Positions 4,113 to 62,317 of a DNA stretch of 64,000 bases are shown piece by piece. Both the position numbers and the translations under genes were made by a program. The notes under the pieces were generated by a model that worked only from the letters and a program-made list of their open reading frames with translations, ran no database searches and was not told the origin of the DNA. This stretch comes from an uncultured Thermoanaerobaculia bacterium (lineage in GTDB: Bacteria; Acidobacteriota; Thermoanaerobaculia; Gp7-AA8), in contig CAZLGP010000238.1 in assembly GCA_964558905.1 (NCBI GenBank), forward strand, positions 8,231-72,230, read 5' to 3'. Positions within the stretch are counted from its first letter, which is position 1. Each line of letters starts with the position of its first letter.

Positions 4113-4204
4113 GAGGGTGCATTCTACTCGCGAGGGGGCTGGAGAAGAAACGGGAACCGAAACGTCCTGGCGATCTCGCGGGCTACACAGATGACTCGCC
4201 TCAC

Positions 4205-4300: not shown

Positions 4301-4312
4301 AGCCCGCGCGTC

Positions 4313-4900: not shown

Positions 4901-4998
4901 AATGCCGGCGACGGACGACCGCGATCGTGTGGTCCCATGACCTCTTGACAGAACATCTGCCTTCGCGTTCAAAGGGCAACATACGAGGGGACACGAAA

Positions 4999-5259: not shown

Positions 5260-5329
5260 GACAGCTAGTCGCGACGGTCACCGCAGCTCTCTCCCTGGCG
5301 ACCATCTATCCGGATGCGCCGACGTTCTC

Positions 5330-5883
5330 GCTGTTCGACGCCGAATGATCTCGTGTGCGTCTGCGGGTCTCTTCGGTCAGCCCAACGCCTCGAACTGCGG
5401 TCGAAGGCGAAGACGGTGATGATCGCTGCGACGTGTCGCCACTCCGGTTGGACGCGTTCTGCGCTCGATTCCATTCCTCGGCGCCGTCCGTGTGGCGCAG
5501 ATGCTGGCCATCATGCGGACGCCACACCGCTTCCGAACGAAGCGGAATCTGTGGCCCTATGCCGGCCTGGCGGTGGTCAAGCACTCGAGCGCCGATCACG
5601 AATTCAAGGACGGCAAGTTGCAACGAACGAAGAAGCCACCGATGACACGGGCTTGAATCGGAACCACAACCCGATGCTGAAGGTGGTGTTCAAGGGAGCG
5701 GCGAATGCGGCCGCCTCGATGCCCGGGCCGTTGCGCGCCTTCTATGAGGCCTCGGTCGCACGAGGTGTCAAGGACGAACTGGCAAAGGTGACGCTGGCAC
5801 GCAAGATCGCGGCCGTGGCACTGCGCCTCTGGAAGCGTGGAGAGACGTTCGATGCGAAGAAACTGACGACGCAAGCGACATAG
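5330..5883 (+). pseudogene. IS110-family transposase, C-terminal remnant with several frameshifts
   Basis: Pieces in three frames: SIPFLGAVRVAQMLAIMRTPHRFRTKRNLWPYAGLAVVKHSSADHEFKDGK, then GLNRNHNPMLKVVFKGAANAAA...LRAFYEASVARGVKDELAKVTLARKIAAVALRLWKRGETF. The N-terminal DEDD catalytic domain is absent. Confidence 0.65.
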
Positions 5884-6339
5884 CGCTCGGGGAGACGACG
5901 ATCGGCGAGAGAGGGTAAGCCACTTCGCGGTCGACGTTGATCCGGGACGAAGGTTCGAGGGAGAGTCTCAGCAACGACGTTCCGCCCGACAGTCAGTAAA
6001 GTCGAGGCACACGCCTAACCACAGTCCCCCTCGGATGACCAGAAGAAGCGTCAGGCCACGCCCGGATGCAGAGAGCGCGAGTCTCGGATAGAACCATGCG
6101 ACACCACCAACGGTGATTGCCGGCGACGCTTGGAATCGTCTGTAGTGATGATCGACGGAGGCGATGGAGATGAGCTCGCGGCGCACGACTGTTCCGCCCA
6201 CCCTGGTGTCCTCACGATCGGCGCGAACCGGTTGCGGCGTGACGCCGTGACGCTGGCGACGATGCAGGCAGCTCGGCTGCCGGACCTGGGCCGGGCCGTG
6301 CCAGCTGCAGTCAAGAGTCAGGCCGCCCGTGCTCGCAGC

Positions 6340-6981
6340 TCATTGACCAGTTCCGCCAGACGGTCCTACGCGCGACCTTGGGTCTGGTGCCCAATTTTCC
6401 AGCTGAAGTTCGGTAATATCATCAGCGTTGAGAACATAAACCTTGGCATCGCGCGCGAATCGATCAACGAGGATATATCTTCCTTCGGTATAGGCGGCTA
6501 CCATTAGGCCTCGATACTGAGGAGCGAGCTGACCTGTTTCTAACTTGACACTAACAACGCGCGCACGTTGGGACGGGCCAATGAATGCTTGCGCCGTCCA
6601 ACTGACCAAAAGCACGGTTACGAACAACGTGAAAGCTATCGCGACAGCTAGCTGCCGACTCGTCAGCGTTCGTGCGAGATTGCGCCAAGCGAAGGGCTTT
6701 CCCCGCTGTCGCTCGATCGCGTGAGCAACCCAATCAAGCAAAAGCAATGGGAGTACAAACAGAAGAAGCCCCAAAGCCCCGCCGTCCATCAGGTATTCTT
6801 GTAACGGTAGCCGCGGGATCAACTCCTGCGGAACACCACGATAGAAGTATGTGGCCGAGTCGGCGGCAAATCTCCACGCGAACAGCAGCACCGACGCGAT
6901 CGCGAGGGCACCGGCCGAGTCGCTGACAATCTTGAACCGTGCAGGCGGTATCTCAGAGGCATTCGCGGGTGGCATCGCCAT
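6340..6981 (-). CDS. Hypothetical multi-pass membrane protein (start uncertain; ORF extends to 7245)
   Basis: Hydrophobic segments GALAIASVLLFAWRF, GGALGLLLFVLPLLLLDWV, LAVAIAFTLFVTVLLVSW. Visibly lower GC than the flanks. Start at MAMPPANASE (6981) chosen by eye. Confidence 0.5.
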   Translation of the reverse strand: MAMPPANASEIPPARFKIVSDSAGALAIASVLLFAWRFAADSATYFYRGVPQELIPRLPLQEYLMDGGALGLLLFVLPLLLLDWVAHAIERQRGKPFAWRNLARTLTSRQLAVAIAFTLFVTVLLVSWTAQAFIGPSQRARVVSVKLETGQLAPQYRGLMVAAYTEGRYILVDRFARDAKVYVLNADDITELQLENWAPDPRSRVGPSGGTGQ

Positions 6982-7472
6982 ACCGCAGGAGAGTCCGGAG
7001 CGCGCCCTTTCCCTACCCACCGTACCATTCTTTTCCGTCAGCAGCTTACGCACGCTTCGAAAACGTGTCACCTCCCTGGGAATCGATCTTGCCGACGTCT
7101 TCAGGCATTCTCTTACTATCGGTCGGCCCAAACTAACGTCTTTGGTGTAAGCTGCGGCGGGCTTCACGTGCCAGGAACGATGCGGCCGGCGTGACGCCGT
7201 GACGCTCGGTGATTCCGTAGCCGGCTCGGTCGGAGGGCCGGGCACCAGCCCGCCGACAGCTTCACACCTAAGTTAGGCGGCCACCTAGCCGCGCCGGCTA
7301 CAACAGGAAATAAACTGGTCGGTTATTTTGAGTTGTCGCGGCCAACTTTAGTGCGGGTGTTGCCGCCACTGCCTCGAAAGTGCCCTTCGTCTGTTTTCGG
7401 TAACTTACAGGAGCGGTCTCTTAGCAGCAGGCCGGGTGGAAGTACTTCACGCTGATTTCGGTTCCTCTCGGT

Positions 7473-8351
7473 ATGGCGAGGCCGAAGCTACAGCATCACC
7501 TCCCGAAAGCGTACCAGACGGGATTCTGCCACAAGGATCGGTTGTGGGTGTATGACCGCGTGACGGATCGTTTTCGACGCGACAGCCCTCGAAACGTAGG
7601 CGCCATCAAGGACGACTATACGTTTGATGTCGGGCAGGGTATCGATGCGCGGCTGGAGACAGGCCTGTCACGTGTTGATGGCGCCGCCGTGCCAGTGCTC
7701 GCAAAACTTCGAGCGCAGCGCTCAATCAGCGGCCAGGAACGACAAGCGTTCGCAGAGTACCTTGCGTACTTTGTGGTGAGGGTGCCCGGATTCACTAGGT
7801 GGCTGAACGAGGTTTATACGATCGAAGAGTGCGCCGACACCGACCCGGTTGCCGTCCAGGAGCTTGTTGACGCCACAAATGGTGACTTCTTCGATCCGCC
7901 CTGCGGCACCACTGCACGACTACAAACGTTCCTAACTGAGCATCGTGTCGGAAACGTACACCAAAACCATCGTCTCCACTTCCTCATCGAAACCGCGAAG
8001 ACGTTGCGTGTTGAATTTTACCGAATGGATTGGGTGATGGCTCGGCCACAGCCGTCGGCACAATTTGTCACATCCGATAACCCGTTGCTGTGGGGCTCGG
8101 AAGCGATCTCGTTCCCTGTCGCGCACGATGCTTGTTTACTAATGTTCCCGGGCGATGGCGCCACGGAGTGCTACTGGACGGCTCTGATGCGGCGTGATGT
8201 GGTCCACAGCACAAACGTGTCGACGGCTCGACACAGCGAACGGGTTGTAATCTCGCCCGACGAGAAGTACTTGCGGCGAATCGTTGAGGCGGCGGCAATC
8301 AAGGGCCGGCCTTCTCCTCCGTTGACTAGGATCGCGAATTCGTCCGCCTAA
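7473..8351 (+). CDS. DUF4238 domain protein
   Basis: 292 aa. The N-terminus HHLPKAYQTGFCHKDRLWVYDR matches the characteristic HH-x-P-x-x-Y-x-x-x-F start of DUF4238. Lower-GC islet. Confidence 0.7.
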   Translation: MARPKLQHHLPKAYQTGFCHKDRLWVYDRVTDRFRRDSPRNVGAIKDDYTFDVGQGIDARLETGLSRVDGAAVPVLAKLRAQRSISGQERQAFAEYLAYFVVRVPGFTRWLNEVYTIEECADTDPVAVQELVDATNGDFFDPPCGTTARLQTFLTEHRVGNVHQNHRLHFLIETAKTLRVEFYRMDWVMARPQPSAQFVTSDNPLLWGSEAISFPVAHDACLLMFPGDGATECYWTALMRRDVVHSTNVSTARHSERVVISPDEKYLRRIVEAAAIKGRPSPPLTRIANSSA

Positions 8352-8566
8352 CGTATCACGCCTTGAGGGGTTCCGCGGACGGTCATCCGTTGCTGGCACG
8401 CACGTGGATCGTGCAGGTACGCGGAGCCTCATAGAAACGTGCCACCGCGAAGATGTTAGTTCGTCGGCCTAATCCTTAGCGCTCAGCCGCCGAAACCGCA
8501 CGCGCTACTGTAGCACCCACGCTGCTGGTGAGGCGGTTTCGGTCGGCTGGAGCGCAGAGTTAGCCG

Positions 8567-10417
8567 TCACGCTTCGGCAAGGGCTGCTTGTTGACCTCTC
8601 GGTTTAAGTGATCCAAGTTTCGAGCCGAGCGATCGACGTATCGCAAAATCCAAGTGATACCGCGGCATGATGGCCGCCGTAAGCGCTTCCTCGGAAAGCG
8701 CCCGCCTGATGTCCTCTCCTGACCACTGGCTCGCCCCTTCGAGTGATTGAACACCCATCACTGCTTCGACGAGACTCTGTTCAAACCATTCCGTTACGAC
8801 CTCCTCAACCGTTGGGCGCGCTCCTGGCCCGTCGGAGTACAGCTTGCAGAAACGCTCAACCATGTCGTGGAAGACGCGAAAGTCTCCGTTGATCTGCAGA
8901 AGGTTCTGCTCTTTGAGATAGGTCGCGGCCCGATCGTCAAGAAATCCAGGCTGACGGGTGCCGTCTTGAACACGTACCCACATCACGGCGGGAAAGGGGT
9001 CAGCCTTTATTTTCAGAGCGGGATCGCCGGTTTGTGTTGCAAAAGCTGCGTAGACATTCCCAGCGCGACCACCGCTAGACCCGCCACCACCTTCACTGGG
9101 CTCGCGTGCTCCACTCCCATCTCGCGCCGTTCTTCCGCCCCGGCGGGGCACGTCATCGTCAACGAAGAACGATCCGGCTGGAGACGGCCGGTAGCGACTC
9201 AGTCGAAAGAGGTCTGCAATCTGCTTCAGACGCTCCCGAATGCTTTGGGCGTGGTCGCGGTTGACTCCTGCCGCTGCCGCTTCCTCGATGACGGCGCGCA
9301 CTTCGGGAGGAAGACTGTCGCGAAATTCAGAGGCCCAGTCCGCCCAAGGTAACGGATCGCTATTCAGCAGCAGCTGAGTGCGCGCGGTAGTGGGGCTCAG
9401 TTCGGTGCCGGTTCCAGGTTTCGGTTCGACGTAGATGACAACTCGGTTGTAGCCTAGGATTACCCCAAACTGCTGCAGGCGGGCAACTCCCGACCGGGAC
9501 GTCTCAATTTCATACAGTTCATCGCGATAAAGAGCAGCGACGTGGCCGCTCGAATTGATGAACCCTGAGTTTTGGCTTAGCGCGGATTCGTCTCTCAGCA
9601 CCCACCAGTGGGCTATGGCGTTTGAGAGGCTCACGTCCCCTTTCCCTGAGGCGTGATCGTCGAGATAGGCTTGCTGCCCAATAACGTTTCGGAGAAGGTT
9701 GCGGTCACCGTCGATACGGGGGTTCTCCCAACCTTCGCGTGCTTTAACTGTGACGCCGGCCGGGAATGTGAAGTAGCGCGTGTTCAGATACTTCGCGATC
9801 CACCTTGAAGGACTAGCCGTGCCAATCGGCGCCCGCATCGTGTGTTCATCGTCCGCGTTTCCAAGGAGAACCACCATCGTCCCGTGATCGCCAAGAATGT
9901 CGGGTTTCACTGAGTTTTCAATTGGGAGCCAATCGTTGAAAGTTCCGTCTGGAAGTTCGAACCGGCGGAGTCCGTACTGGCCGGTTCGAGGGTCGCGCCA
10001 GAGGTGGATCATGGCGCCTGCGCCACCGGTCCACGACAGGTACATGAGCCCCACATGGTTTCGCGTCGCCGCCGCAATCTTGGCGCCCACACCGAAGTTC
10101 CCGTCATGCGACTGAAGGGTGCTCGAGGAAGACAGTTGATTGATGTATTTCACCATCTCCGGCCCCGTCATCCCAATCCCGGTGTCAATGACGGCCAACT
10201 TGTAGATGCCGTCCCGTTCAAGGTCAAACTTCGTCCAGTCAACATCCCATCGGATCTCGCCGCGCGGGTCAGGCAGCTTGAGGATTGCTTCGATGCTGTT
10301 CTGCGTCAGCTCACGAACAAACTGAAGCGGAGCGCAATCCCGACCAAGGCGGTCGAGCATGAAGCCCATGTTGTCGATGGTGAGGGGAGATGTCTCGCGG
10401 GAAAGCTGTTTCGACAT
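8567..10417 (-). CDS. GHKL (Bergerat-fold) ATPase, MORC/HATPase_c_3-like, 616 aa
   Basis: ORF trimmed to the ATG at 10417, with AAGGAG 7-12 nt upstream. N-box FVRELTQNSIEA, G1 box AVIDTGIGM, G2 box GNFGVGAK. The long C-terminal region has no domain I recognise. Confidence 0.8.
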   Translation of the reverse strand: MSKQLSRETSPLTIDNMGFMLDRLGRDCAPLQFVRELTQNSIEAILKLPDPRGEIRWDVDWTKFDLERDGIYKLAVIDTGIGMTGPEMVKYINQLSSSSTLQSHDGNFGVGAKIAAATRNHVGLMYLSWTGGAGAMIHLWRDPRTGQYGLRRFELPDGTFNDWLPIENSVKPDILGDHGTMVVLLGNADDEHTMRAPIGTASPSRWIAKYLNTRYFTFPAGVTVKAREGWENPRIDGDRNLLRNVIGQQAYLDDHASGKGDVSLSNAIAHWWVLRDESALSQNSGFINSSGHVAALYRDELYEIETSRSGVARLQQFGVILGYNRVVIYVEPKPGTGTELSPTTARTQLLLNSDPLPWADWASEFRDSLPPEVRAVIEEAAAAGVNRDHAQSIRERLKQIADLFRLSRYRPSPAGSFFVDDDVPRRGGRTARDGSGAREPSEGGGGSSGGRAGNVYAAFATQTGDPALKIKADPFPAVMWVRVQDGTRQPGFLDDRAATYLKEQNLLQINGDFRVFHDMVERFCKLYSDGPGARPTVEEVVTEWFEQSLVEAVMGVQSLEGASQWSGEDIRRALSEEALTAAIMPRYHLDFAIRRSLGSKLGSLKPRGQQAALAEA

Positions 10418-11163
10418 GGTCAACTCCTTGTGAGAGGTAGGATTGCGACCTCTCGCTTGAAGGTGGAGCCGTGATGAAGCAGCAAAATGGGAGGCGACGC
10501 GCCTGCGACTAGCTGCAGCAACACTGCACCGGGTTGTGCGAATTGTACACCGGCTTCGCTTCGACACTCGCGACGCCCAACTTGATTTCGGTCGGCCCTG
10601 GACCGCGTTTCCGCAGCGTAGCACGGCCCAGGGCCATCAAGACGCCGGCGGTCATGCGACTCATGGCAGGTCCAGGGCTCGGTACGCCGCGGGCGCCGCA
10701 GGGTCATGGACGTGCGCCGAGACTCCATCGGTGGTCGTCGCCTCTACGCGTGGTGGAGCACCGCCGCGTGAGTTGTTAGATAAGGCGTTATGCGACGTTG
10801 CCAGGAGAGGTGCGGATAACGCGTGATGCAACGGCCTTCGGCGGCGGGCACTCCGGCGCTCGAGTGAGACTGGAATCCTCGCGTCGCGAGGACATTGGTC
10901 CGCGCGATGTGAGGTTCAGTGCCGGAGATCACCGGAGAGCACCGGAGATCATAAGGTCCCGCACCCCCTCCCTCCGCATCTGAGGCACTGCCCGGAGTCG
11001 TGGTCGCTTCTTCGGGGATCGGCGACTGCTTGTCAACCCCTCGTTTGACCGTGTCCTGAGGCGGACCAAGCCGGCGGTGCGGGCCAGGCGGCTGTGGCGG
11101 CGCCGGACTCGTAGGTCCGGCGCCGTGCATCTCAGCGGAAAGTAGTGGTCTCCTGGCGAGCCG

Positions 11164-11334
11164 TCATAGCGTCCCGAGGGCATGCAGCACTTCTTGAAAA
11201 CGCCTCCCGGAGCCGCAGGGGCAGGGGTCGTTGCGGCCGAGCTTTTCGAGCAGCTCTTTGTCGCCGTGGACGATCCGGATGCCGCGCTTCACGCGGGTTT
11301 CGGACGGATAGCCTTTCCGGCGTTTGCTGCTCAC
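11164..11334 (-). CDS. Small SEC-C motif protein, probably frameshifted at the motif
   Basis: (V)[56 protein letters not shown] 1-nt shift after GSGRR would read [13 protein letters not shown], completing the canonical CPCGSGxxFKKCC motif. Confidence 0.45.
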
Positions 11335-11448
11335 TTCAAAAGCAGAGATCCTCGTGGTTCTTACGCATGATGTGCCTCCTTGCCCATTGTGGGCGCGAGA
11401 GGATCGCACACATCGCCCCGCGCGCACCACCACCACCTCCATCGTGAT

Positions 11449-11535
11449 GCGGAAGGACGCAGGTCGGATGCAGGTCGGAATGATGAGTATGGGTGATGAG
11501 TGCGAGGGGGCGATCCCACTCATCACTCATCACTC
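11449..11535. repeat. Hairpin of tandem GATGAGT-type heptamers
   Basis: gaatgatgagtatgggtgatgagtgcgagggggcgatcccactcatcactcatcactctcat; the arms are reverse complements. Confidence 0.75.
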
Positions 11536-11628
11536 TCATGCCTTCCCGCTGGAGCGCGGCCGCCGGACAATCGTAAACGCGGCGCGGTGCTCCTCCCTCG
11601 TCCTCCAGGCGAGTGATAGCATCCGTTC

Positions 11629-11859
11629 ATGCCAGTCGCGGCAGACAGAGATGAGCTCCGAGCATGGATCGCGGGTCACGAGATCGCGAACGGGCGGCAA
11701 CGCGATCGGGTGGCGGCGATGAGTGCTGATGAGAAGCTTCGCCAGATCAGCCGGCTGATGGCCTCTGCGAGCCTGTTCGACATGTCGCGTCGCGCCGCGG
11801 GCGATCGTGCTGTGATCGAGCTGTGGCAACGGTTGCGGGCGCGCTGGCCGAGAGCCTAA
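11629..11859 (+). CDS. Hypothetical small protein, coupled to the downstream nucleotidyltransferase (possible antitoxin-like partner)
   Basis: 76-aa ORF. Its stop overlaps the next start (TAATG). Confidence 0.5.
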   Translation: MPVAADRDELRAWIAGHEIANGRQRDRVAAMSADEKLRQISRLMASASLFDMSRRAAGDRAVIELWQRLRARWPRA

Positions 11860-12428
11860 TGACGGCACAGGACGAACACCTGCGCGAGACTCTCGCCGAT
11901 CTCATGCGGTGGATCTCGGCGGAGCGACTCGAGGCAACGGTGATTGGGGGCATTGCCGCCGGCCTGCATGGACAACCACGGCTCACGGAGGACGTTGACG
12001 CCGTCGTTCTCGGCGCAGATGCGGAAGGGCTTGTCGCATCGGGGAAGCTGTATGGGTTCGAGCCACGCATTGCGGACGCTCTGGAGTTCTCGCGGCGCAC
12101 GCGCGTTCTACTGCTGCGACATCGATCCGGTGTGGATCTCGACGTGTCGTTGGGTGCCCTGCCCTTCGAGAAGGAAGTGATCGAGCGGGCCAGAGTGATC
12201 GATGCGGGAGGTCTCCAGATCAGCGTGGCTGCTCCGGAGGACATCATCATCATGAAGGCACTGGCGCGGCGTCCTCAGGATATCGCGGACATCGCCGGAA
12301 TCATCGAAGTTCAAACCGACCTCGATGTCGACCGGATTCGTCGCTGGGTGCGCGAGTTTTCCGCCATCCTCGAAATGCCGGAGATTCTCGACGATCTGGA
12401 GTTGTTGTTGCGCCGCAGAAGTCTCTGA
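11858..12428 (+). CDS. Nucleotidyltransferase-fold protein (MNT / DUF6036-like)
   Basis: ATG at 11858 (MTAQDEHLRE...). VIGGIAAGLHGQPRLTEDVDAVV is the GG-x(n)-D-x-D minimal nucleotidyltransferase motif. Confidence 0.7.
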
Positions 12429-38521: not shown

Positions 38522-39607
38522 ATGCAACTGGGTATCGTGGGACTCCCATTCTCCGGCAAGTCGACACTCTTTCAGGCAGTGACGAAGACACACCTCGACC
38601 GCGCCGCGGCCGGGAAGACCGATGCGCACCTCGGCATCGCCAAGGTCCCGGACGAGCGGCTCGATCGCTGCGCCGCCCTCTTCAAGCCGAAGAGCACCGT
38701 CCATGCCACCATCGAGTTCGTCGACGTCGCGGGACTGCAGAAGGGCGCCAGCGGAACGACTCAGTTCACCACCGGCTTCCTCTCGGCGGTGAAGACGAAC
38801 GACGCTCTCATCCAGGTCGTGCGGATGTTCGAGGACGACGCCGTGCCGCATCCCGACGGCAGCATCGACCCCCTGCGCGACGTGGCCACGTTCGAGACGG
38901 AGTTCATCCTCGCGGACATGACCATCCTCGAGTCGCGCATCGAGAAGATCCACAAACAGCTCGGCCGCATGCAGGACGATCAGATGAAGCGGGAGCTGCC
39001 CGTCCTCGAGAAATGCCTCGCCCTGTTGCACGAGGAGAAGCCGCTGCGCAACGAGGATCTCTCGAAAGACGAGCTGCACATCCTCAAAACGTATCAGCTG
39101 CTCTCGCTCAAGCCGATGCTGATCGCCTTGTCCTTCGACGAGTCGCAGCAGTCGATCGTCGAGGAGACGGTCACCGGCGTCTCTTCGGCGAAGGCCGCGC
39201 TGCGCACGCGTGTGGTGGCGTTCTTCGGCAAGATCGACATGGAGATGTCGGAGCTCTCCGGCGACGACGCGCGCATGTTCATGGAGGAGTACGGCATCCG
39301 CGAATCGGCGCTCGACACGCTGATCCGCGAGGCCTACGCGCTCCTGGGGCTGCAGTCGTTCCTCACCGTCGGCGAAGACGAATGCCGGGCCTGGACGATC
39401 AGGACGGGGATGACCGCGCAGGAAGCCGCGGGTGTGGTCCACTCGGACTTCGTGCAGAAGTTCATCCGCGCCGAGGTCGTGCACTACGACGACTTCATCG
39501 CCGCGGGCGGCTCGTTCGCGAAGGCGAAGGAGTCAGGGCACTGGAGGCTGGAAGGGAAGGCATATGTGGTGCGGGACGGGGACATTCTGAACATCCGGCA
39601 TGGGTGA
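38522..39607 (+). CDS. ychF: Redox-regulated ATPase YchF (Obg-like)
   Basis: MQLGIVGLPFSGKSTLFQAVT, FVDVAGL. C-terminal TGS-like RAWTIRTGMTAQEAAGVVHSDF...VVRDGDILNIRH. Confidence 0.9.
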   Translation: MQLGIVGLPFSGKSTLFQAVTKTHLDRAAAGKTDAHLGIAKVPDERLDRCAALFKPKSTVHATIEFVDVAGLQKGASGTTQFTTGFLSAVKTNDALIQVVRMFEDDAVPHPDGSIDPLRDVATFETEFILADMTILESRIEKIHKQLGRMQDDQMKRELPVLEKCLALLHEEKPLRNEDLSKDELHILKTYQLLSLKPMLIALSFDESQQSIVEETVTGVSSAKAALRTRVVAFFGKIDMEMSELSGDDARMFMEEYGIRESALDTLIREAYALLGLQSFLTVGEDECRAWTIRTGMTAQEAAGVVHSDFVQKFIRAEVVHYDDFIAAGGSFAKAKESGHWRLEGKAYVVRDGDILNIRHG

Positions 39608-39613
39608 AGGGGG

Positions 39614-39856
39614 AGGATAGGACCGATAGGACGGATAGGACCGATAGGACGGATAGGACGGATAGGACGGATAGGGAGGACGGGGCCCTACTGCGCTCCT
39701 GGTCATTGCAGGGCGCGGTCGTCAGTGCGATTTCAGTAATCTACCCACCGTCCCATTCGTCCCATCCGTCCCATCCGTCCCATCCGTCCCATTCGTCCCA
39801 TCCGTCCCATTCGTCCCATCCGTCCCATTCCTTCCATCCGTCCCATCCGTCCTATC
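39614..39856. repeat. Large imperfect hairpin made of tandem 9-mers: (GGATAGGAC)x7 ... 66-nt spacer ... (GTCCCATCC)x12
   Basis: Read directly. The arms are complementary at 8 of 9 positions per unit. Fills the whole gap between the convergent ychF and the XRE-cupin gene. Confidence 0.9.
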
Positions 39857-39863
39857 GCCCCCC

Positions 39864-40448
39864 TCACACCGTCACCACCACCGCCGTGCACTTGTTCCTG
39901 CCCGCTCTTCGATACGAGTGCGGCACCGAGGCGTCGAAGTAGATCGAGTCGCCTTCCTCGAGCTCGTGCTCGTGGCGGCCGATGGTCATCGCCAGGCGCC
40001 CGGTGAGAACGTGGAGGAGCTCCACGCCCTCGTGGACGTGAGGGGCGGACTCGCCGGCGGGAACGGGTTGGAAATCGGCGAGGTACGCGTTGAGCTTGCG
40101 CTCGCTGGCGGTGAAGTCGAGGCTCTCGAAGTAGTAGGAGACGGCTCCGCCATCCGGCTGGTTGGGGAAGCGCTGCCTCTCCCCGCGGCGGACGATCGAC
40201 GCCACCTGCCGCTTCGACTCGTCCCGGAAGAAGTAGTCGAGACCCACGCCGAAGACCATCGCGATGCGGAGCAGGGTGGGGAGCGGCGGGTAGATGTTGG
40301 ACCGCTCGATCTTCGACAGCAGCGCCGCCGAGAGGCCGGTGTGCCGCCCCAGCTCCACGAGGGCCATCTTCTTCCTGAGACGCAGCGCCCGGACCTTGTC
40401 CCCGATCTCGTAGCTGCGCAGTCCCTCTTCGAGCGTCGACGAAAGCAT
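39864..40448 (-). CDS. XRE-family transcriptional regulator with C-terminal cupin domain
   Basis: HTH: IGDKVRALRLRKKMALVELGRHTGLSAALLSKIER. Cupin: HVHEGVELLHVLTGRL...GDSIYFDASVPHSY. Confidence 0.88.
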   Translation of the reverse strand: MLSSTLEEGLRSYEIGDKVRALRLRKKMALVELGRHTGLSAALLSKIERSNIYPPLPTLLRIAMVFGVGLDYFFRDESKRQVASIVRRGERQRFPNQPDGGAVSYYFESLDFTASERKLNAYLADFQPVPAGESAPHVHEGVELLHVLTGRLAMTIGRHEHELEEGDSIYFDASVPHSYRRAGRNKCTAVVVTV

Positions 40449-51744: not shown

Positions 51745-51760
51745 TAGGATAACGGGAGTT

Positions 51761-51849
51761 CTGAGTGTTGAGTCCTGAGTCCTGAGTGCTGAGTGCTGAG
51801 TGCTGAGTGCTGGGTGCTGAGGACTCAGGACTCAGAACTCAGGACTCGG
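51761..51849. repeat. Hairpin of tandem heptamers (CTGAGTG/CTGAGTC vs GACTCAG)
   Basis: ctgagtgttgagtcctgagtcctgagtgctgagtgctgagtgctgagtgctgggtgctgag|gactcaggactcagaactcaggactcgg, in a divergent promoter region. Confidence 0.85.
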
Positions 51850-51884
51850 CCCGGCGCTCATCGTACAATACGGCCCGATCCGCA

Positions 51885-52520
51885 ATGTGGAAGAAGCTAC
51901 TACTCGCTCTCGCGGCGCTGCTCGTGGTCGGCGCCGGCGTGATGGTCGCGAAGATCGGGCCGCGCAACGTCATCGGCATGATCCTCTACGACCAGCGGCG
52001 TGAAGGCGACCTGAAGGTCGGCGATCGCGCGCCGGACGCGCTGCTCGTCTCGTTGGACGGGAAGACGCGGCCACCGCTCCTCGAGGCGGACGCGAACAAG
52101 CCGACCGTGTTGATCTTCGGCAGCTTCACGTGACCTCCGTTCCGGCGGTCGGTCGACCGTCTCCGGAAAATGCACGAGCAGTACGGGGACCGCGTCCGCT
52201 TCCAAACCGTCTACATCCGGGAGGCGCATCCGCTCGACGAGTGGCAGATGGACTCGAACGAGAAAGAGGACGTGTGCTACCGCCAACCGAAGACGATGGC
52301 GGAGCGCCTCGTGATCGCGAATGATTTCGTGAAGCGCTTCCAGTACCCGATCCCGCTCGCGGTCGACGCGATGGACGATCCGGTGGAGAAGGTCTACGCC
52401 GGCTGGCCGGAGCGCTTCTACATCATCGATCCGGGCGGCACGATCGTCTACAAGGGTGAGCCCGGGCCGTTCGGCTTCCACCCCGAGGAGGTGGAGGCGT
52501 GGCTGAGGACGAACGTGTGA
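51885..52520 (+). CDS. Iodothyronine-deiodinase-like thioredoxin-fold selenoprotein (in-frame TGA = Sec at 52131..52133)
   Basis: Track ORFs 51807..52133 and 52170..52520 are in the same frame. Read-through gives VLIFGSFT-U-PPFRRSVDRLRKMHEQYGDRVRFQTVYIREAHPLDEW, matching the deiodinase active site FGS-x-T-U-P-(S/P)-F ... VYI-x-EAH-x-x-D-x-W. N-terminal TM/signal MWKKLLLALAALLVVGAGV. Confidence 0.8.
52140..52168 (+). promoter_or_regulatory. Candidate bacterial SECIS hairpin
   Basis: Starts 7 nt after the UGA: uuccgg-cgguc-GGUC-gaccg-ucu-ccggaa (6-bp + 5-bp stems, G/U-containing apical loop). Confidence 0.55.
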
Positions 52521-58166: not shown

Positions 58167-58829
58167 TCAGGATGACAGGTCCGCGCGCCGCTCGAGGACG
58201 ACCATCGTTATGTCGTCGGTCGTCTCCAGCGCGTCCACGAGCTTGCGCGCCGAGGTCGTGTTCGCGAGCAGCTTCTTCAATCCCGCCACCCCCAGCTCCC
58301 CGTCCCCCACCACGGCCTCGGTCACGCCGTCGCTGTACAGCACGAGCGCGTCTCCTTCCGAAAGCCAGGTCGTCGACGTGCTCCATGAAGCCGAGGGCAG
58401 CACGCCGAGGATCGGGCCGGTGGACGCGACCTCTTCGATGGCGCCGGAGCGGCGAACGATCAGAGGCGGCGGATGTCCCGCGTTGGTCAGGGTGAGTTTG
58501 CCGTCGTCGCGCAGCCAGCCGATCACCGCGGTGGCGAAGCGATTGCTCGGGAGAAGCGGCGCAAGGAACTCGTGCAGGCGCTGAGTCGTGCGCGCGGGGT
58601 CGCATTCCGTCGACGCGCAGGACGCGATGCGGTGCTCGAGCTCCTCCTGGATCATGGCCATGACGATCGCGGCGGGCAGACCCTTGCCGGCGACGTCGCC
58701 GAGGGCGATCCAGAGTCGGTCGTCGTGGCGATGCGCGAAGTAGAAGTCGCCGGTGAAGGTGCGCGCGGCGCGGGAGACCGCCTGGATGTCAATCGTGGAG
58801 CTCACGACGCGATCGCGAACGGCTGGCAT
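58167..58829 (-). CDS. PP2C/SpoIIE-family serine phosphatase (stand-alone catalytic domain)
   Basis: ATG at 58829 (MPAVRDRVV). GDFYFAHRHDDRLWIALGDVAGKGLPAAIVMA ... TLTNAGHPPPLI ... LVLYSDGVTE. The ORF-track extension to 59567 overlaps the anti-sigma gene in another frame. Confidence 0.85.
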   Translation of the reverse strand: MPAVRDRVVSSTIDIQAVSRAARTFTGDFYFAHRHDDRLWIALGDVAGKGLPAAIVMAMIQEELEHRIASCASTECDPARTTQRLHEFLAPLLPSNRFATAVIGWLRDDGKLTLTNAGHPPPLIVRRSGAIEEVASTGPILGVLPSASWSTSTTWLSEGDALVLYSDGVTEAVVGDGELGVAGLKKLLANTTSARKLVDALETTDDITMVVLERRADLSS

Positions 58830-59671
58830 CGACGACAGGGCCGGTATCCTTTCTGCACCGCTTCCTCGGCCGCGCGAAAAGGGACACGATTTTCTTCGCG
58901 GATCCTCCTCGCGTCGCGGCAGGTGGGGAAGCAGACGATCTTCGTGGTCTTCGATCCGATGTAGCGGACGCCCTTCCGCCCGAGGTTCTCCAGAGCCTCG
59001 ACGTCGACGCCTTCGCGGCGGAGCATCTCCCGCTTCAGTGCCGGCCCGAAGGCGTATTGGCCGACGCCTCCGGTCGAGGGGACGACGCGGTGGCAGGGGA
59101 CGACGAACGGGATGGTGTTCTTCGCGCAGACGCTCCCGACCGCGCGCACGGCCCTGGGCCGGCCGACCTGGCGGGCGACCCATTCGTACGTGCGCACCTC
59201 GCCGCGCGGGATGCGCGTGAGCATGCCGAGGACGTCCCGCTCGAGGTCGGAGATCTCGTCGGTCCAGTCGACGCGCGGCTTGTCCACGCCCTCTCCTTGC
59301 AGCGCGGCGTGTACCTGTTTGCGGAGCGCCTCGGGAAGCGTTCCCGCCTTCAGCGTGCAGCCGCAACGCGCGGTGTACGCGGCATGGAATTCCTCGAACG
59401 TGCCCCGATGGATCATCCGGATGCCGCGTCCGGAGAAGGCGACCCATACGTCGTCGACCTGTTCGTAAGAATCGGCGAGGACGTCCCTGCACGAGCGCGG
59501 CGGCGCGGTCGCCAGCGACTTGATGCTGCGCGCGAGGTCGTCGACGTCGGCGACGGAGGCATCGCACGAGGGGCAGCTGCGGAGGTGCTCCTTGACCGCA
59601 CCGCGCTCCTCGGCCTGCAACTCGCCGGTGCGCAGGGCGTCGACACGGGTCAGCACGGATCTACACTGCAT
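58802..59671 (-). CDS. Fusion protein: zf-HC2 anti-sigma N-terminus + O6-alkylguanine-DNA alkyltransferase (MGMT) + Ada-type zinc finger
   Basis: MQCRSVLTRVDALRTGELQAEERGAVKEHLRSCPSC (HxxxCxxC). MGMT core IPRGEVRTYEWVARQVGRPRAVRAVGSVCAKNTIPFVVPCHRVV. C-terminus YIGSKTTKIVCFPTCRDARRIREENRVPFRAAEEAVQKGYRPCRRCQP. No TM segment. A TTG at 59677 is an alternative start. Confidence 0.8.
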   Translation of the reverse strand: MQCRSVLTRVDALRTGELQAEERGAVKEHLRSCPSCDASVADVDDLARSIKSLATAPPRSCRDVLADSYEQVDDVWVAFSGRGIRMIHRGTFEEFHAAYTARCGCTLKAGTLPEALRKQVHAALQGEGVDKPRVDWTDEISDLERDVLGMLTRIPRGEVRTYEWVARQVGRPRAVRAVGSVCAKNTIPFVVPCHRVVPSTGGVGQYAFGPALKREMLRREGVDVEALENLGRKGVRYIGSKTTKIVCFPTCRDARRIREENRVPFRAAEEAVQKGYRPCRRCQPFAIAS

Positions 59672-60281
59672 GGGCAACCCCCTTCTTTTCGAGAGCGTCC
59701 CGCAGCATCTTGAGGCTGCGGAACACTTTTCCGCGGAGCGACGACTCGGTCGCGCCGACGGTTCTCGCGATGTCCGCGTACGACATGTCCTCCATGAATC
59801 TGAGAACGATCAGTTCGCGCGCCTCGACAGGCAGCCCGGCCATGGCGTCGCGTAGGAGTTGGGCATCCTGCTGGCGCTCGAGGTCGGTCGAGCCTTGCTC
59901 GCGCACGAACGGCCCGAGGCGCCCGTCGTCGAAGGTGTCGAGCGGCTGCTCGAGCGCACGGGTCTTCGAGCGGCGCTTGTTGAGACAGAGGTTGCGCACC
60001 ATTTTGAAGAGCCACGGCCGCAGTGCGAGCGCGGCGCAGCGCGCCTCGTCGTACTGCCGGGTCAGCGCGCGGTGGGCGCGCAGCATCGCGTCCTGCACGA
60101 CTTCCTGCGCGTCGAACGCGTTCTGCAGGATGCCGTGAGCGTAGCCGTAGAGCGCGGGCTCGAAGCGGTCGATGAGCCGCTCGAGCGCACCCGGCTCGCC
60201 GCGATGGACCGAAACCGCGAGGTTCTCCTCGGAGACGTCCCGGAGAGCGACGGCGCTGCCGCCGGTCCATGAGTTCTTCAT
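59661..60281 (-). CDS. ECF (group IV) RNA polymerase sigma factor
   Basis: Trimmed to MKNSWTGG (ATG 60281). Region 2 FEPALYGYAHGILQNAFDAQEVVQDAMLRAHRAL. Region 4 ARELIVLRFMEDMSYADIARTVGATESSLRGKVFRSL. Confidence 0.9.
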   Translation of the reverse strand: MKNSWTGGSAVALRDVSEENLAVSVHRGEPGALERLIDRFEPALYGYAHGILQNAFDAQEVVQDAMLRAHRALTRQYDEARCAALALRPWLFKMVRNLCLNKRRSKTRALEQPLDTFDDGRLGPFVREQGSTDLERQQDAQLLRDAMAGLPVEARELIVLRFMEDMSYADIARTVGATESSLRGKVFRSLKMLRDALEKKGVAHAV

Positions 60282-60316
60282 GCTCACTCCAACACGGGCT
60301 ATCGCACTTTCGTTCG

Positions 60317-60420
60317 GGAGAAAGAGAAAAGGTAAAAGGTAAAAGAGAAAGGAGGCCGCCGTCTCGTTGCGCTGCGCTCGGTCCACTTTTCTCTTTTCTC
60401 TTTGACCTTTTCTCCTTTCG
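60317..60420. repeat. Hairpin of purine-rich simple repeats (GAGAAAAGG / CCTTTTCTC)
   Basis: ggagaaagagaaaaggtaaaaggtaaaagagaaaggagg ... cacttttctcttttctctttgaccttttctcctttcg, in the divergent sigma / ABC-F promoter region. Confidence 0.85.
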
Positions 60421-60448: not shown

Positions 60449-62317
60449 ATGCCCGAAGTCTTGCTCACTGCAGAATCGCTCACAAAATCCTACGGTTCCC
60501 GCCCGCTGTTCGAGAACCTCTCCTTCACCGTCTCCGACGGCGATCACATCGGGCTCGTCGGTCCGAACGGGTCGGGGAAGTCGACGCTGCTGAAGATCCT
60601 GGCGGGGACGGAGGATCCCGACTCGGGGACGCGCGCGCTGCGGAAGGGTCTGAGGATCGGTTATGTGCCTCAGGATGCGGTGTTTGCGCCGGGCAAGTCC
60701 GTCGAGGAGGTCCTCCTCGAGGCGCTGCACGACGCGGTCGCGCTCGACGACCACGAGAAGCATGGCCGCGTGGCGGTGGCCCTCGGTAAGGCCGGGTTTC
60801 CGGATCGCGAGCAGCAGACCGACGTGCTGTCGGGCGGCTGGCGTAAGCGTCTCGCGATCGCACGCGAGCTCGTGCGCGAGCCGGACGTTCTGCTCCTCGA
60901 TGAGCCGACGAATCACCTCGACGTCGAGGGCATCGTCTGGCTCGAGGGACTGCTGCGCAGCGAGCCTGAGGCATTCATCGTCGTCAGCCACGACCGCTAT
61001 TTCCTCGAGAATGTCACGAAGCGGATGCTCGAGCTGAACCGCGCCTACCCCGGCGGCCTGCTCCAGAGCGACGGGACGTACAGCGACCTCCTGGAACGGC
61101 GCGACGAGGTGCTGCGTAACGAGGCCGCGTATCAGGAGACCCTGGCGAATCTCGTCCGCCGCGAGATGGAGTGGCTCCGCCGCGGTCCGAAGGCGCGCAC
61201 GACGAAGGCGAAGGCGCGCATCCAGAACGCGGAGCGCCTGATCGACGACCTCGCCGACAGCCGCGATCGGGCGCAGTCGTTCAGCGCGGAGATCGAGTTC
61301 AACGCGTCGCAAAGGAAGACGAAACGACTCTGGTTCGGGCGCGGTCTCGCGAAGTCAGTTGGCGGTTGGCAGTTGGCGGTTGACGGGGAGCCGCCGCCCG
61401 CCCCCGATCTCTCCCGCCAACCGCCAACCGCCAACCGCCAACTCTTCAAAGACCTCGACATCCTCCTCACCCCCGGCTCCCGCCTCGGCGTTCTCGGGCC
61501 GAACGGCTCGGGCAAGACGACGCTGTTGCGCGTCATCGTGGGCGAGCTCGAGCCGGACGCGGGGACGATCGAGAAAGCCGACGGGCTGCGCATCGTCTAC
61601 TTCGAACAGAACCGCCAGTCGCTCGATCCGAGTGTGACGCTCAAGCGCGCGCTTGCGCCCGAGGGGGACAGCGTCGTGTACGGCGGCCGCGCGATTCACG
61701 TCGCGGGATGGGCGAAGCGCTTTCTGTTCCGGCCCGAGCAACTCGAGACCTCGGTGTCGCGACTGTCGGGAGGGGAGAAGGCGCGCATCGTCCTCGCGCG
61801 GCTCATGCTCCAGCCCGCGGACCTGCTGGTGATGGACGAGCCGACGAACGACCTCGACATCCCGACGCTCGACGTCCTCGAGGAATCCCTCATGGAGTTC
61901 CCGGGGGCACTCGTCCTCGTCACGCACGACCGCTATCTGCTCGACCGTGTCTCGACGCGCGTGCTCGCGTTGGACGGAAAGGGCGGCGCGGAGTATTTCG
62001 CCGATTTCTCGCAGGCGCTTCAGAGGTCAGAAGGCAGAGGGCAGAGGGCAGAAGCTCCTCCGCCCACGGGCGGTAGCCTGCCGGCAACGCAGAAGCCGAA
62101 ACGGCTCGGCTACCTGGAGCAGCGCGAGCTCGATGCGATGGAGGCCAACGTTCTCGCGGCAGAGGAGCGGCTGGAGGAGGCGAAGAGACGTGCGGAAGAT
62201 CCCGCCATCTCCTCCGACGCGAACGCATTACAGCAGCGCTACGCGGAGCTCAGTGGGGCGCAGGCGGAGGTGGATCGCCTTTACGCGCGGTGGGCGGAGT
62301 TGGAGGCGAAGGTGTAA
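60449..62317 (+). CDS. ABC-F family ATPase (Uup-like, C-terminal coiled coil)
   Basis: ATG at 60449. Two NBDs (GLVGPNGSGKSTLLKIL / LSGGWRKRLAIA; GVLGPNGSGKTTLLRV / LSGGEKARIVLA). C-terminal coiled coil. Confidence 0.9.
   Translation: MPEVLLTAESLTKSYGSRPLFENLSFTVSDGDHIGLVGPNGSGKSTLLKILAGTEDPDSGTRALRKGLRIGYVPQDAVFAPGKSVEEVLLEALHDAVALDDHEKHGRVAVALGKAGFPDREQQTDVLSGGWRKRLAIARELVREPDVLLLDEPTNHLDVEGIVWLEGLLRSEPEAFIVVSHDRYFLENVTKRMLELNRAYPGGLLQSDGTYSDLLERRDEVLRNEAAYQETLANLVRREMEWLRRGPKARTTKAKARIQNAERLIDDLADSRDRAQSFSAEIEFNASQRKTKRLWFGRGLAKSVGGWQLAVDGEPPPAPDLSRQPPTANRQLFKDLDILLTPGSRLGVLGPNGSGKTTLLRVIVGELEPDAGTIEKADGLRIVYFEQNRQSLDPSVTLKRALAPEGDSVVYGGRAIHVAGWAKRFLFRPEQLETSVSRLSGGEKARIVLARLMLQPADLLVMDEPTNDLDIPTLDVLEESLMEFPGALVLVTHDRYLLDRVSTRVLALDGKGGAEYFADFSQALQRSEGRGQRAEAPPPTGGSLPATQKPKRLGYLEQRELDAMEANVLAAEERLEEAKRRAEDPAISSDANALQQRYAELSGAQAEVDRLYARWAELEAKV
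61355..61443. repeat. Hairpin of tandem GGCGGTT / AACCGCC heptamers embedded in-frame in the ABC-F gene
   Basis: cagttggcggttggcagttggcggttgacgg ... cgccaaccgccaaccgccaaccgccaactc. Encodes VGGWQLAVDGEPPPAPDLSRQPPTAN between LAKS and RQLFKDL. Confidence 0.85.
62021..62054. repeat. Simple tandem repeat (GGCAGAG) inside the ABC-F coding sequence
   Basis: cagaggtcagaaggcagagggcagagggcagaag, encoding QRSEGRGQRAEA. Confidence 0.7.

Follow-up and report, generated by a model that had tools for sequence, protein, structure and literature searches.

An ECF sigma factor operon encoding a putative anti-sigma factor fused to MGMT and Ada-type alkyl-acceptor domains

A three-gene operon combines an ECF sigma factor, a soluble protein in which a zinc-binding class I anti-sigma domain (ZAS) is fused to two suicide alkyl-acceptor domains, and a PP2C phosphatase. 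The two acceptor domains are an O6-alkylguanine-DNA alkyltransferase (MGMT) and an Ada N-terminal-type zinc domain (Ada-Zn). The evidence leans, although only slightly, toward a self-contained and autoregulated alkylation-damage circuit, in which a self-consuming anti-sigma factor frees its sigma factor once alkylated. This function is inferred from sequence and has not been demonstrated.

Organization of the operon

The operon, which comes from a soil acidobacterium, lies on the minus strand of the window, i.e., the whole 64-kb stretch of DNA that was analyzed. The first gene (59661..60281, with ATG at 60281 and TAG at 59663-59661) encodes the sigma factor of 206 aa. It is followed by the gene of the fusion protein of 289 aa (58802..59671, with ATG at 59671 opening the sequence MQCRSV... 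and TGA at 58804-58802) and by that of a stand-alone PP2C phosphatase of the SpoIIE/RsbU type of approximately 212-220 aa (58167..58829, with ATG at 58829 and a stop codon ending at 58167). The first-pass annotation had described three overlapping minus-strand genes, and this description is confirmed. The sigma and fusion genes overlap by 11 nt, or by 17 nt if an alternative TTG start of the fusion gene at 59677 is used, and the fusion and PP2C genes by 28 nt, which an in-frame GTG at 58805 would turn into a 4-nt GTGA overlap. The fusion and PP2C genes are translationally coupled. In most relatives, the start/stop overlap between the sigma and fusion genes is 4 nt, as against 11 nt in the window.

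The three-gene unit is retained in relatives' loci at identities as low as 52%, with unrelated flanks. In the window, it is surrounded by genes for an ABC-F ATPase, a DEAD helicase, an alpha-2-macroglobulin, a permease, and the like, which differ from the flanking genes of the relatives and among which no repair or partner-switching gene was found. The rest of the 64-kb window yielded no alkylation-repair gene, and an Rfam search of the whole window returned no matches.

The sigma factor matches the Pfam families Sigma70_r2 and Sigma70_r4_2 and the TIGR02937 model (sigma70-ECF, 84 bits for a cut-off of 42.9). It consists of regions 2 and 4 only, within about 200 aa, which meets the criterion for an ECF (group 4) sigma factor, and its matches among PDB sequences are SigL, SigE, SigH, and SigW.

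An ECF-type promoter (GAACGAAAGTGCGATAGCCCGTGTT, 60291..60315, minus strand), with GAAC as the -35 and GTGTT as the -10 element, stops 9 nt short of the sigma ATG. The motif GAAC-N16-GTGT(T) recurs with unchanged spacing to the start codon in the related loci L001-L004, L081, L083, and L085-L088, the conserved GAAC-N16-GTGTT promoter ending 9-10 nt upstream of the sigma start codon. Of these loci, L081 lies on contig DATAJY010000013.1 of GCA_036261885.1. A related motif, TGCAAC-N15/16-G(T/G)GTT, precedes operons whose fusion protein has no ZAS domain (ZAS-less operons). Altogether, the promoter motif occurs in 36 of 45 loci, for a background of 0.005 per 200 nt. A conserved ECF-type promoter in front of the sigma start implies autoregulation, and the operon is thus probably controlled by its own sigma factor. 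Its mRNA is probably leaderless or near-leaderless, leaderless transcription being itself an inference. Within the 64-kb window, the only exact match to GAAC-N16-GTGTT is the operon's own site (0.3 expected); five matches with one mismatch (7.7 expected) include none that is convincing, and no further regulon target was found there by the promoter motif. A reading of the promoter GCAA as an Ada box was rejected because the AraC helix-turn-helix that reads this box in E. coli is missing from the fusion protein.

Domain architecture of the fusion protein

Residues 1-66 (59474..59671, minus strand) constitute the ZAS domain, identified by Pfam zf-HC2 with 26.2 bits for a gathering cut-off of 22.2. 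Its ligands are C3 (codon 59665-59663), H29 (59587-59585), C33 (59575-59573), and C36 (59566-59564). The class I anti-sigma opening previously read from the stretch EHLRSCPSC is further supported by a profile of 21 N-termini, which matches solved anti-sigma domains among PDB sequences across 69 positions. These include RsiW (5wuq_C, E=3e-8), DdvA (3e-5), ChrR (5e-5), and RslA (7e-5), with RsrA matched weakly. A failure to match anti-sigma profiles, which would have spoken against the idea, is not observed, although NCBIfam anti-sigma models match the fusion protein only below their cut-offs. The four ligands are invariant in the 21 diverse N-termini, and in 136 aligned closer relatives H29, C33, and C36 are invariant with C3 conserved in at least 90%. 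In these 136 sequences, the N-terminal motif RVDALRTGEL...H29xxxC33xxC36 is conserved as strongly as the catalytic cores.

In the confident AF2 model of the fusion protein (pLDDT 88), N-terminal helices are predicted at residues 3-7, 10-15, 20-32, 34-53, and 59-65. By their positions alone, they appear compatible with the four-helix topology of ZAS domains, in which the His ends helix 2 and the CxxC opens helix 3, the first helix (3-15) being broken; the Foldseek match is only weak (RskA, 4nqw_B, E 0.8). The maximum Kyte-Doolittle hydropathy over 19 residues is 1.05; therefore, no transmembrane segment is predicted, and the absence of a hydrophobic segment noted in the first-pass annotation is borne out.

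The MGMT part covers residues 67-224 (59000..59473, minus strand) and carries its acceptor Cys193 in the PCHR motif (codon 59095-59093). Its core had been claimed to be complete with an intact PCHR, which agrees with the Pfam DNA_binding_1 match (96.3 bits, cut-off 27), the two-domain fold, and the invariance of the catalytic residues. By Foldseek, the model aligns over approximately 160-170 columns to 1sfe, 1yfh, 4wxd, and 4zyd, with E-values down to 2e-10 and target-normalized TM-scores of 0.70-0.79. The active site of MGMT enzymes comprises the acceptor Cys of PCHR, a Glu-His-water-Cys network, an Arg finger, a Tyr, and an Asn. In 39 diverse relatives, Y162, R176, N185, C193, H194, R195, Y206, and E220 are invariant; by motif comparison, they are taken to correspond to human Y114, R128, N137, C145, H146, R147, Y158, and E172.

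Residues 230-286 (58814..58984, minus strand) form a Cys4 zinc domain of the methylphosphotriester-accepting type found at the N-terminus of Ada, with the cysteines C247 (codon 58933-58931), C251, C279, and C282. The proposal of an Ada-type zinc finger (VCFPTC...PCRRC) holds, the domain exceeding the Pfam Ada_Zn_binding cut-off (45.9 bits for 23). By phmmer, it matches 1adn, 1u8b, and 1zgw at about 1e-6, and by Foldseek 1u8b, with 42% identity over about 54 columns. In E. coli Ada, the Cys4 site is made of C38, C42, C69, and C72 in the pattern CxxxC...CxxC. A lack of conservation of the catalytic or zinc cysteines among relatives, which would have spoken against the idea, is not observed: C193 and the four Ada-type cysteines are invariant in both the 39 diverse and the 136 closer relatives. 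An AraC-family helix-turn-helix (HTH_18/AraC) was not found in the fusion protein by Pfam or NCBIfam, and the NCBIfam Ada equivalog reaches only 99 bits for a cut-off of 345, on the MGMT part alone. Without an AraC-type helix-turn-helix, the fusion protein cannot be a DNA-bound activator of the Ada type.

Relatives and linkage to ECF sigma factors

More than 190 distinct clusters at 90% identity, with proteins of 284-317 aa sharing 47-95% identity, display the same MGMT and Ada-Zn architecture, which rules out an assembly artefact. A zf-HC2 domain is annotated in about half of them, and H-x3-C-x2-C is still invariant in the 136 sequences aligned. Databases call the fusion protein a plain Ogt. 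That it might be nothing more, with an unrelated leader and no linkage to sigma genes elsewhere, had been envisaged from the outset, and the genomic context contradicts it. In species-representative genomes, an ECF sigma gene stands directly upstream of 39 of 40 genes encoding MGMT and Ada-Zn but of only 5 of 27 genes for a plain Ogt. The same holds for 6/6 loci combining ZAS, MGMT, and Ada and for 6/6 loci combining ZAS and MGMT. The sigma-linked MGMT and Ada-Zn lineages include Acidobacteriota, Chloroflexota, Actinomycetota, Dormibacterota, and Eremiobacterota, and related pairs of a sigma factor and a repair protein, none of them characterized in the literature searched, are known from seven or more named bacterial lineages. 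In a rough neighbor-joining tree, the adjacent sigma factors split from six non-adjacent ECF sigma factors of the same loci, except those of L007, L019, and L046. The window sigma factor clusters in this tree with those of actinobacterial ZAS-less sigma-MGMT operons.

Most of these relatives are ZAS-less. Indeed, anti-sigma helices 1-3 and the zinc ligands are absent from 33 of the 39 sigma-linked MGMT and Ada-Zn loci, and the ligands are missing in the 19 ZAS-less members among the 39 diverse relatives. Such proteins, encoded in Nonomuraea, Streptosporangium, Actinomadura, and Thermobifida among others, retain only a leader that aligns with the tail of the anti-sigma domain (hhalign 88.8%), and a profile of this leader gave no match to PDB sequences. 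Either a much-reduced element suffices in the ZAS-less majority or regulation runs another way. No conserved third core gene follows the ZAS-less fusions; the downstream gene changes by locus, an EamA-like transporter and a transketolase being among those identified by eye.

Proposed mechanism and alternatives

In the proposed circuit, the conserved ECF-type promoter would drive a translationally coupled operon encoding the sigma factor, the anti-sigma/repair fusion, and the PP2C phosphatase. In the undamaged cell, the N-terminal zinc domain would keep the ECF sigma factor inactive, its binding to and inhibition of the sigma factor being inferred from its likeness to anti-sigma domains. The fusion protein would scan DNA and irreversibly accept the alkyl group of O6-alkylguanine onto Cys193 and the methyl group of methylphosphotriesters onto the Ada-type site Cys247, a transfer likewise inferred. 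Alkylation may then alter or destabilize the fusion protein, with release of the sigma factor as the presumed outcome. There are precedents for such effects, as alkylated MGMT becomes destabilized and N-Ada, once methylated, gains DNA affinity through an electrostatic switch. The freed sigma factor would transcribe its own operon, supplying new repair protein and sigma factor, and once the damage is gone, fresh unalkylated fusion protein would recapture it. Sensor, effector, and negative regulator would thus be one consumable protein. Against this scheme stands the lack, here, of any experiment or structure showing that the N-terminus binds the sigma factor or that the latter is freed upon alkylation.

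Since a ZAS domain is capable of sensing thiol-reactive stress by itself, the MGMT and Ada cysteines need not be the sensor. Electrophiles could oxidize or alkylate the ZAS zinc-thiolate and free the sigma factor as in RsrA/SigR, with MGMT and Ada-Zn as mere effector cargo, whereby repair capacity would be produced along with the sigma factor. The conservation of all four ligands is compatible with this, as are the profile matches to ChrR/RslA-type domains and, weakly, to the redox-sensing RsrA, and the promoter, written as GAAC-N18-GTT, presumably resembles the SigR/SigH-type consensus. However, since most sigma-linked relatives lack the ZAS ligands but retain the MGMT and Ada cysteines without exception, along with a promoter of the same type, it is the alkyl acceptor and not the ZAS site that is common to the family. 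Moreover, many ZAS sites are purely structural, as PMC7406223 also points out, and RsiW is the best match here. Sensing by the ZAS site is therefore considered unlikely.

Improbable to a similar degree is that the middle protein is simply a co-transcribed repair enzyme, the main product of the regulon, with a zinc finger serving DNA binding or stability and a sigma factor controlled elsewhere, i.e., by transcription, the PP2C phosphatase, or an unlinked regulator. This would suit the database name Ogt and the ZAS-less majority, which has no recognizable full anti-sigma domain. It would also suit the ECF122 group, for which a review records 6-O-methylguanine DNA methyltransferase as a conserved neighbor, an "unknown mechanism", and no cognate anti-sigma factor (PMC8999054). 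Nevertheless, the N-terminus in the window scores higher than the zf-HC2 cut-off and resembles solved anti-sigma domains along 69 positions, a start/stop overlap right after an ECF sigma gene is the canonical sigma/anti-sigma arrangement, with the position kept in 39/40 loci, and so strongly conserved an N-terminal domain needs some function.

The third gene product (Pfam SpoIIE, 135 bits) has as its closest solved PP2C homologue the phosphatase domain of the M. tuberculosis protein Rv1364c (3ke6, E=6e-14). It shares the catalytic domain of RsbU/RsbP/SpoIIE-type phosphatases, with the motifs GDFY, DVAGKG, NAGHPPP, YSDGVTE, and DDIT visible, but is a bare catalytic domain without a sensor domain. 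Its gene follows the fusion gene in L001, L002, L081, L083, and L085-L088, is missing from L003 and L004 as well as from all ZAS-less and other sigma-MGMT loci, and is confined to one Thermoanaerobaculia clade. No gene for a STAS protein, a kinase, or an RsbW-like/HATPase anti-sigma factor was found in the operon, the examined window flanks, or the loci of six relatives, although an unlinked partner is not excluded. The additional reset or partner-switching layer that the first-pass annotation had seen hinted at is therefore unsupported, the phosphatase being outside the conserved core and without a kinase or STAS partner nearby. That phosphorylation is the primary switch, with PP2C dephosphorylating the fusion protein, the sigma factor, or an unlinked STAS protein and the repair domains being secondary, is very unlikely on these grounds and in view of the usual acidic motif DAQEVVQDA in sigma region 2.2, presumably unlike phosphorylation-dependent ECFs, despite the translational coupling of the PP2C gene to the fusion gene, their joint conservation to 52% identity, and the RsbU-like nature of the homologous domain in the partner-switching protein Rv1364c. 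The phosphatase is a clade-specific addition and may act as an output or modulator.

Comparison with known systems

E. coli Ada and B. subtilis AdaA/AdaB employ the same two suicide acceptors, the N-Ada Cys4 zinc domain and an MGMT with PCHR. The proposed logic is also that of Ada, where irreversible acceptance of an alkyl group is linked to induction of the acceptor's own gene. Unlike Ada, the fusion protein has no AraC-type helix-turn-helix, its domain order is reversed, MGMT preceding the C-terminal zinc domain, and its output would run via a dedicated ECF sigma factor that is sequestered and then released.

With SigR-RsrA, SigH-RshA, SigW-RsiW, and SigE-ChrR, the operon shares the Cys-x26-H-x3-C-x2-C zinc anti-sigma domain, an anti-sigma gene directly downstream of and overlapping the sigma gene, and an ECF-type, probably autoregulatory promoter. 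The fusion protein is soluble, like RsrA. Whereas RsrA ends after the anti-sigma domain, ChrR carries a cupin, and RsiW spans the membrane, this domain is fused in the window to two alkyl acceptors, and the proposed signal is DNA alkylation instead of thiol oxidation, singlet oxygen, or envelope stress.

The closest description on record concerns ECF122, a group of the Casas-Pastor et al. 2021 classification exemplified by WP_057211282.1 of Cellulomonas sp. Root930; neither ECF122 nor methyltransferases are mentioned in the main text of that article. The ZAS-less operons of the four actinobacterial genera named above fit the description of ECF122 and share their promoter type with the window operon, whose MGMT protein differs by its explicit ZAS domain and by the accompanying PP2C. 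Promoter type and tree clustering suggest that the window sigma factor is related to those of the actinobacterial sigma-MGMT operons. Of the criteria for ECF122, which also include assignment by the ECF Hub group models, only the MGMT neighborhood speaks for membership of the window sigma factor. The bare association of a sigma factor with MGMT is already on record for ECF122, whereas the fusion of ZAS to MGMT and Ada-Zn was not found described in the literature searched. Consistent with the earlier statement that no characterized example was known, a full-text literature search found no characterized anti-sigma factor containing MGMT or Ada domains, the ECF122-MGMT neighborhood alone being on record.

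Significance

As the textbook example, the Ada response shows how a repair protein becomes a transcription factor when it is itself irreversibly alkylated. This response, described mostly in Proteobacteria and Firmicutes, is linked to a DNA-binding domain of the AraC type. The locus suggests that the same chemistry has been connected to an entirely different output, the sequestration of an ECF sigma factor. The idea lends itself to direct testing, since the genera with ZAS-less relatives include the cultivable Nonomuraea, Actinomadura, Streptosporangium, and Thermobifida, the last with T. halotolerans. The compactness of the system, made of a sigma factor, a promoter, and a self-labelling SNAP-tag-like inhibitor, may also interest synthetic biologists.

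A wider proposal is that of a widespread Ada-independent adaptive response, in which an ECF sigma lineage including the window's, ECF122-like, and related sigma factors is controlled by a consumable suicide-repair anti-sigma factor. This extension remains tentative, doubt slightly outweighing belief. Sigma-MGMT pairs are frequent in Actinomycetota, Chloroflexota, and Acidobacteriota, groups in which little is known about how alkylation repair is regulated. Under the wider proposal, each repair event would destroy one sigma inhibitor, so that transcription would scale with damage; the proposed circuit would also make covalent transfer of DNA damage a new class of input for anti-sigma factors. 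The ZAS form of Thermoanaerobaculia would then be a "Rosetta stone", indicating that the MGMT partner of the ZAS-less majority is also a sigma regulator and providing a mechanism for an ECF group for which none is currently listed.

Operon organization

The minus-strand span 60281-58167 of the window holds three genes. The first (ATG 60281, TAG 59663-59661) encodes an ECF sigma factor of 206 aa that matches the Pfam families Sigma70_r2 and Sigma70_r4_2 as well as TIGR02937 (84 bits). The second (ATG 59671, TGA 58804-58802) encodes the fusion protein of 289 aa; its start codon falls within the 3' end of the sigma gene, giving an 11-nt overlap, and is preceded 6 nt upstream by a Shine-Dalgarno-like run, GAAGGGGG. 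The third, ending at 58167, encodes a bare PP2C domain (Pfam SpoIIE, 135 bits) and starts either at ATG 58829, with a 28-nt overlap with the fusion gene, or at the in-frame GTG 58805, with a GTGA overlap. The top database matches are proteins with 95% identity, encoded in metagenome-assembled genomes of Thermoanaerobaculia (Acidobacteriota).

Domains of the fusion protein

The three-gene operon with an anti-sigma/MGMT/Ada-zinc fusion, as proposed in the first-pass annotation, is confirmed, the three domains of the protein scoring above the Pfam curated cut-offs: zf-HC2 (26.2 bits against a cut-off of 22.2), DNA_binding_1/MGMT (96 bits) and Ada_Zn_binding (46 bits). Besides the zf-HC2 match, a profile built from 21 diverse N-termini supports the anti-sigma reading by matching solved class I anti-sigma domains: those of RsiW (5wuq_C, E=3e-8 over 69 positions), DdvA, ChrR and RslA (about 5e-5) and, weakly, RsrA. 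The absence of a hydrophobic segment was borne out by 19-residue hydropathy, with a maximum of 1.05. The zinc ligands C3 and H29-x3-C33-x2-C36 (numbering of the 289-aa protein) have an RsrA-like spacing and are invariant in the 21 N-termini. Thiol sensing by this zinc-binding class I anti-sigma (ZAS) domain, with the repair domains carried as cargo, is a rival explanation that we consider unlikely.

In 39 sequences with identities down to 30%, C193, H194, R195, R176, Y162, N185, Y206 and E220 are invariant, as are the Ada cysteines C247, C251, C279 and C282. Since these residues are retained, the MGMT and Ada-type zinc (Ada-Zn) acceptor domains both look catalytically competent, alkyl transfer itself being inferred from sequence. 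Neither resembles an ATL-type pseudo-enzyme, the catalytic residues being invariant. An identity as an Ada-type activator was also ruled out because no AraC helix-turn-helix was found by Pfam or by a second domain-model search.

An AlphaFold2 model based on an alignment of 136 sequences is confident (pLDDT 88, pTM 0.74). Its N-terminal domain is helical, with His29 ending one helix and C33/C36 starting the next. Foldseek aligns the model over about 165 columns with the full-length MGMTs 1sfe (E. coli Ada-C), 1yfh (human) and 4wxd (Mtb Ogt), and places its C-terminus on methylated N-Ada (1u8b, 42% identity).

Linkage to ECF sigma factors

A survey of one genome per GTDB species yielded 80 loci, in which ORFs were called and then searched with the sigma and PP2C of the window; linkage was counted only in loci with sufficient upstream DNA. 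The expected association with ECF sigma genes elsewhere was recovered: such a gene lies directly upstream on the same strand in 39/40 loci encoding MGMT with a C-terminal Ada-Zn domain (6/6 with a ZAS head, 33/34 without), versus 5/27 for other MGMTs, including canonical Ada. The usual sigma/MGMT gene overlap is 4 nt. The five sigma-linked plain MGMTs (three from Actinomycetota, one from an Acidimicrobiia MAG, one from a Chloroflexi MAG) are relatives in which the zinc domain has been lost, and at least three of them display the promoter type of the sigma-MGMT operons. Carrier lineages include Thermoanaerobaculia, Chloroflexota, Actinomycetota (among them Nonomuraea, Streptosporangium, Acidimicrobiia and Rubrobacteraceae), Dormibacterota, Eremiobacterota, Rokubacteria and Binatia.

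A further search found relatives without the zinc head (ZAS-less) in many cultured members of Nonomuraea, Actinomadura, Streptosporangium and Thermobifida, all bearing the plain name 'methylated-DNA--protein-cysteine S-methyltransferase'. That the fusion protein is a co-transcribed repair enzyme, and not an anti-sigma factor, seems to us just as doubtful as thiol sensing. The ZAS-less proteins have a leader of about 40-55 aa (consensus ...AP..L...VL...GL.D.Y) that aligns with the tail of the N-terminal profile of the ZAS form (hhalign probability 88.8%, E=2.5e-6) and has no match among PDB sequences.

In Eremiobacterota (loci L045, L047, L048, L056, L057 and L072), a ZAS domain is fused to MGMT without the Ada zinc domain, directly downstream of an ECF sigma gene (6/6 loci), an architecture parallel to that of the window. 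P0176, a 287-aa protein from the representative search, carries an N-terminus resembling ECF sigma region 2 (...AEVFLRAYSALRGY) and a C-terminal MGMT+Ada-Zn; either a natural fusion of sigma and MGMT or a frameshift in the gene call could account for it.

Promoter and sigma lineage

Immediately upstream of the sigma start (60315-60291, minus strand) lies GAAC-N16-GTGT(T), also found in ten ZAS-type relatives. In the window and these relatives, 9-10 nt separate the end of the motif from the start codon, with no consistent Shine-Dalgarno in between, a geometry that suggests a leaderless mRNA. At this same spacing, ZAS-less operons have TGCAAC-N15/16-G(T/G)GTT, and the Eremiobacterota ZAS-MGMT set, read by eye, has GAAACC-N15/16-G(G/T)GTC about 10 nt ahead of the start codon. 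The common pattern is present within 200 nt around the sigma start in 36/45 loci, against a background of 0.005 per 200 nt elsewhere in those loci, and is the signature of a putative autoregulated ECF promoter.

In a rough neighbour-joining tree, the six non-adjacent ECF sigmas present in the surveyed loci separate from almost all MGMT-adjacent ones, and the exceptions (loci L007, L019 and L046) likewise lack the promoter motif; on this basis, the MGMT-linked sigma partners appear to form one related lineage. Downstream of the MGMT+Ada-Zn gene, at about 570 nt, three loci of Dormibacterota/Candidatus Acidoferrum (L038, L039 and L040) have a second, convergent ECF sigma gene, whose product is placed outside the MGMT-linked sigmas by the tree.

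PP2C gene

The additional PP2C layer suggested initially is peripheral: the sigma-fusion-PP2C unit is retained in Thermoanaerobaculia relatives (L081, L083, L085-L088), with fusion identity down to 52% and differing flanking contexts, but PP2C is absent from L003 (44% identity), L004 and all other lineages surveyed, and the neighbouring genes examined include neither a kinase nor a STAS gene. Among proteins of solved structure, the RsbU-like domain of Mtb Rv1364c is the nearest homologue of this PP2C. PP2C is a clade-specific add-on with no assignable role, and phospho-switching centred on it is very improbable.

Other features of the window

Long hairpins with arms of tandem 7-9-nt repeats occur at 60321-60417, 306-384, 39606-39864, 51756-51847 and 61357-61443, each with its own unit (AAAAGGT/AAAGAGA, CGGGCYCGGG, GGATAGGACSG with 79-nt arms, GAGTCCT and TTGGCGG), and match no Rfam family. 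One copy, with a folding energy of -61 kcal/mol (z = -3.0), separates the divergent ABC-F and sigma genes; L081, L083, L085 and L088 have a hairpin at the equivalent intergenic position upstream of sigma, with unrelated units. The hairpin at 61357-61443 (31-nt arms, 94% complementary) lies within the ABC-F ORF 60452-62317 (plus strand), keeps the frame and encodes ...GGWQLAVDGEPPPAPDLSRQPPTANRQ..., apparently inserted in frame into the region between the domains.

A deiodinase-like ORF (T4_deiodinase family, 51807-52520, plus strand) contains an in-frame TGA at 52131-52133 within the selenocysteine active-site motif FGSFT-TGA-PPF. It probably encodes a bacterial selenoprotein, which ORF-calling programs would break into two genes. 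The stretch at about 3700-12400 (G+C 0.59 against about 0.66, weak third-position GC bias) encodes a DUF4238 protein, a 685-aa protein with a weak HATPase_c match, an AbiEii/DUF6036-type nucleotidyltransferase and several ORFs without family, possibly representing a mobile or defence island.

Prior records and proposed mechanism

Full-text literature searches found no characterised anti-sigma factor with MGMT or Ada domains. In a 2022 review, the sigma group ECF122, exemplified by Cellulomonas sp. Root930, is classed under 'unknown mechanism' and as 'without cognate anti-sigma factors', with 6-O-methylguanine DNA methyltransferases as conserved neighbour (PMC8999054, citing Casas-Pastor et al. 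2021). The bare sigma-MGMT association is therefore already on record, whereas no description of the ZAS-MGMT-Ada-Zn fusion, its breadth or the shared promoter was found in the literature searched. Together, these three features argue that the MGMT partner is the sigma regulator; membership of the window's sigma in ECF122 is not established.

The initial interpretation passes the three tests that could have refuted it (anti-sigma match, conserved cysteines, linkage to ECF sigmas); its mechanism is still inference. A self-consuming anti-sigma loop fits the facts and is, in our judgement, the likeliest reading, somewhat more probable than not, with sigma binding, alkyl transfer and release all inferred. 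The ECF promoter would drive coupled synthesis of the sigma factor and its inhibitor, whose anti-sigma domain would hold sigma while its MGMT and Ada-Zn domains would take alkyl groups irreversibly from DNA. The alkylated inhibitor would release sigma, which would raise production of both proteins, and new inhibitor would switch the loop off after lesions disappear. Precedents for the release step are the structural destabilisation of MGMT once alkylated and the methylation of N-Ada Cys38, which neutralises the zinc-thiolate and increases its affinity for DNA (structures 1u8b and 1zgw). The main complication is that the zinc head is missing in most family members: either these proteins bind sigma through the short leader or through the MGMT body, or the family is controlled in another way. 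Under the self-consuming loop, the system would consist of an ECF sigma factor and a class I anti-sigma factor bearing a new, self-consuming sensor.
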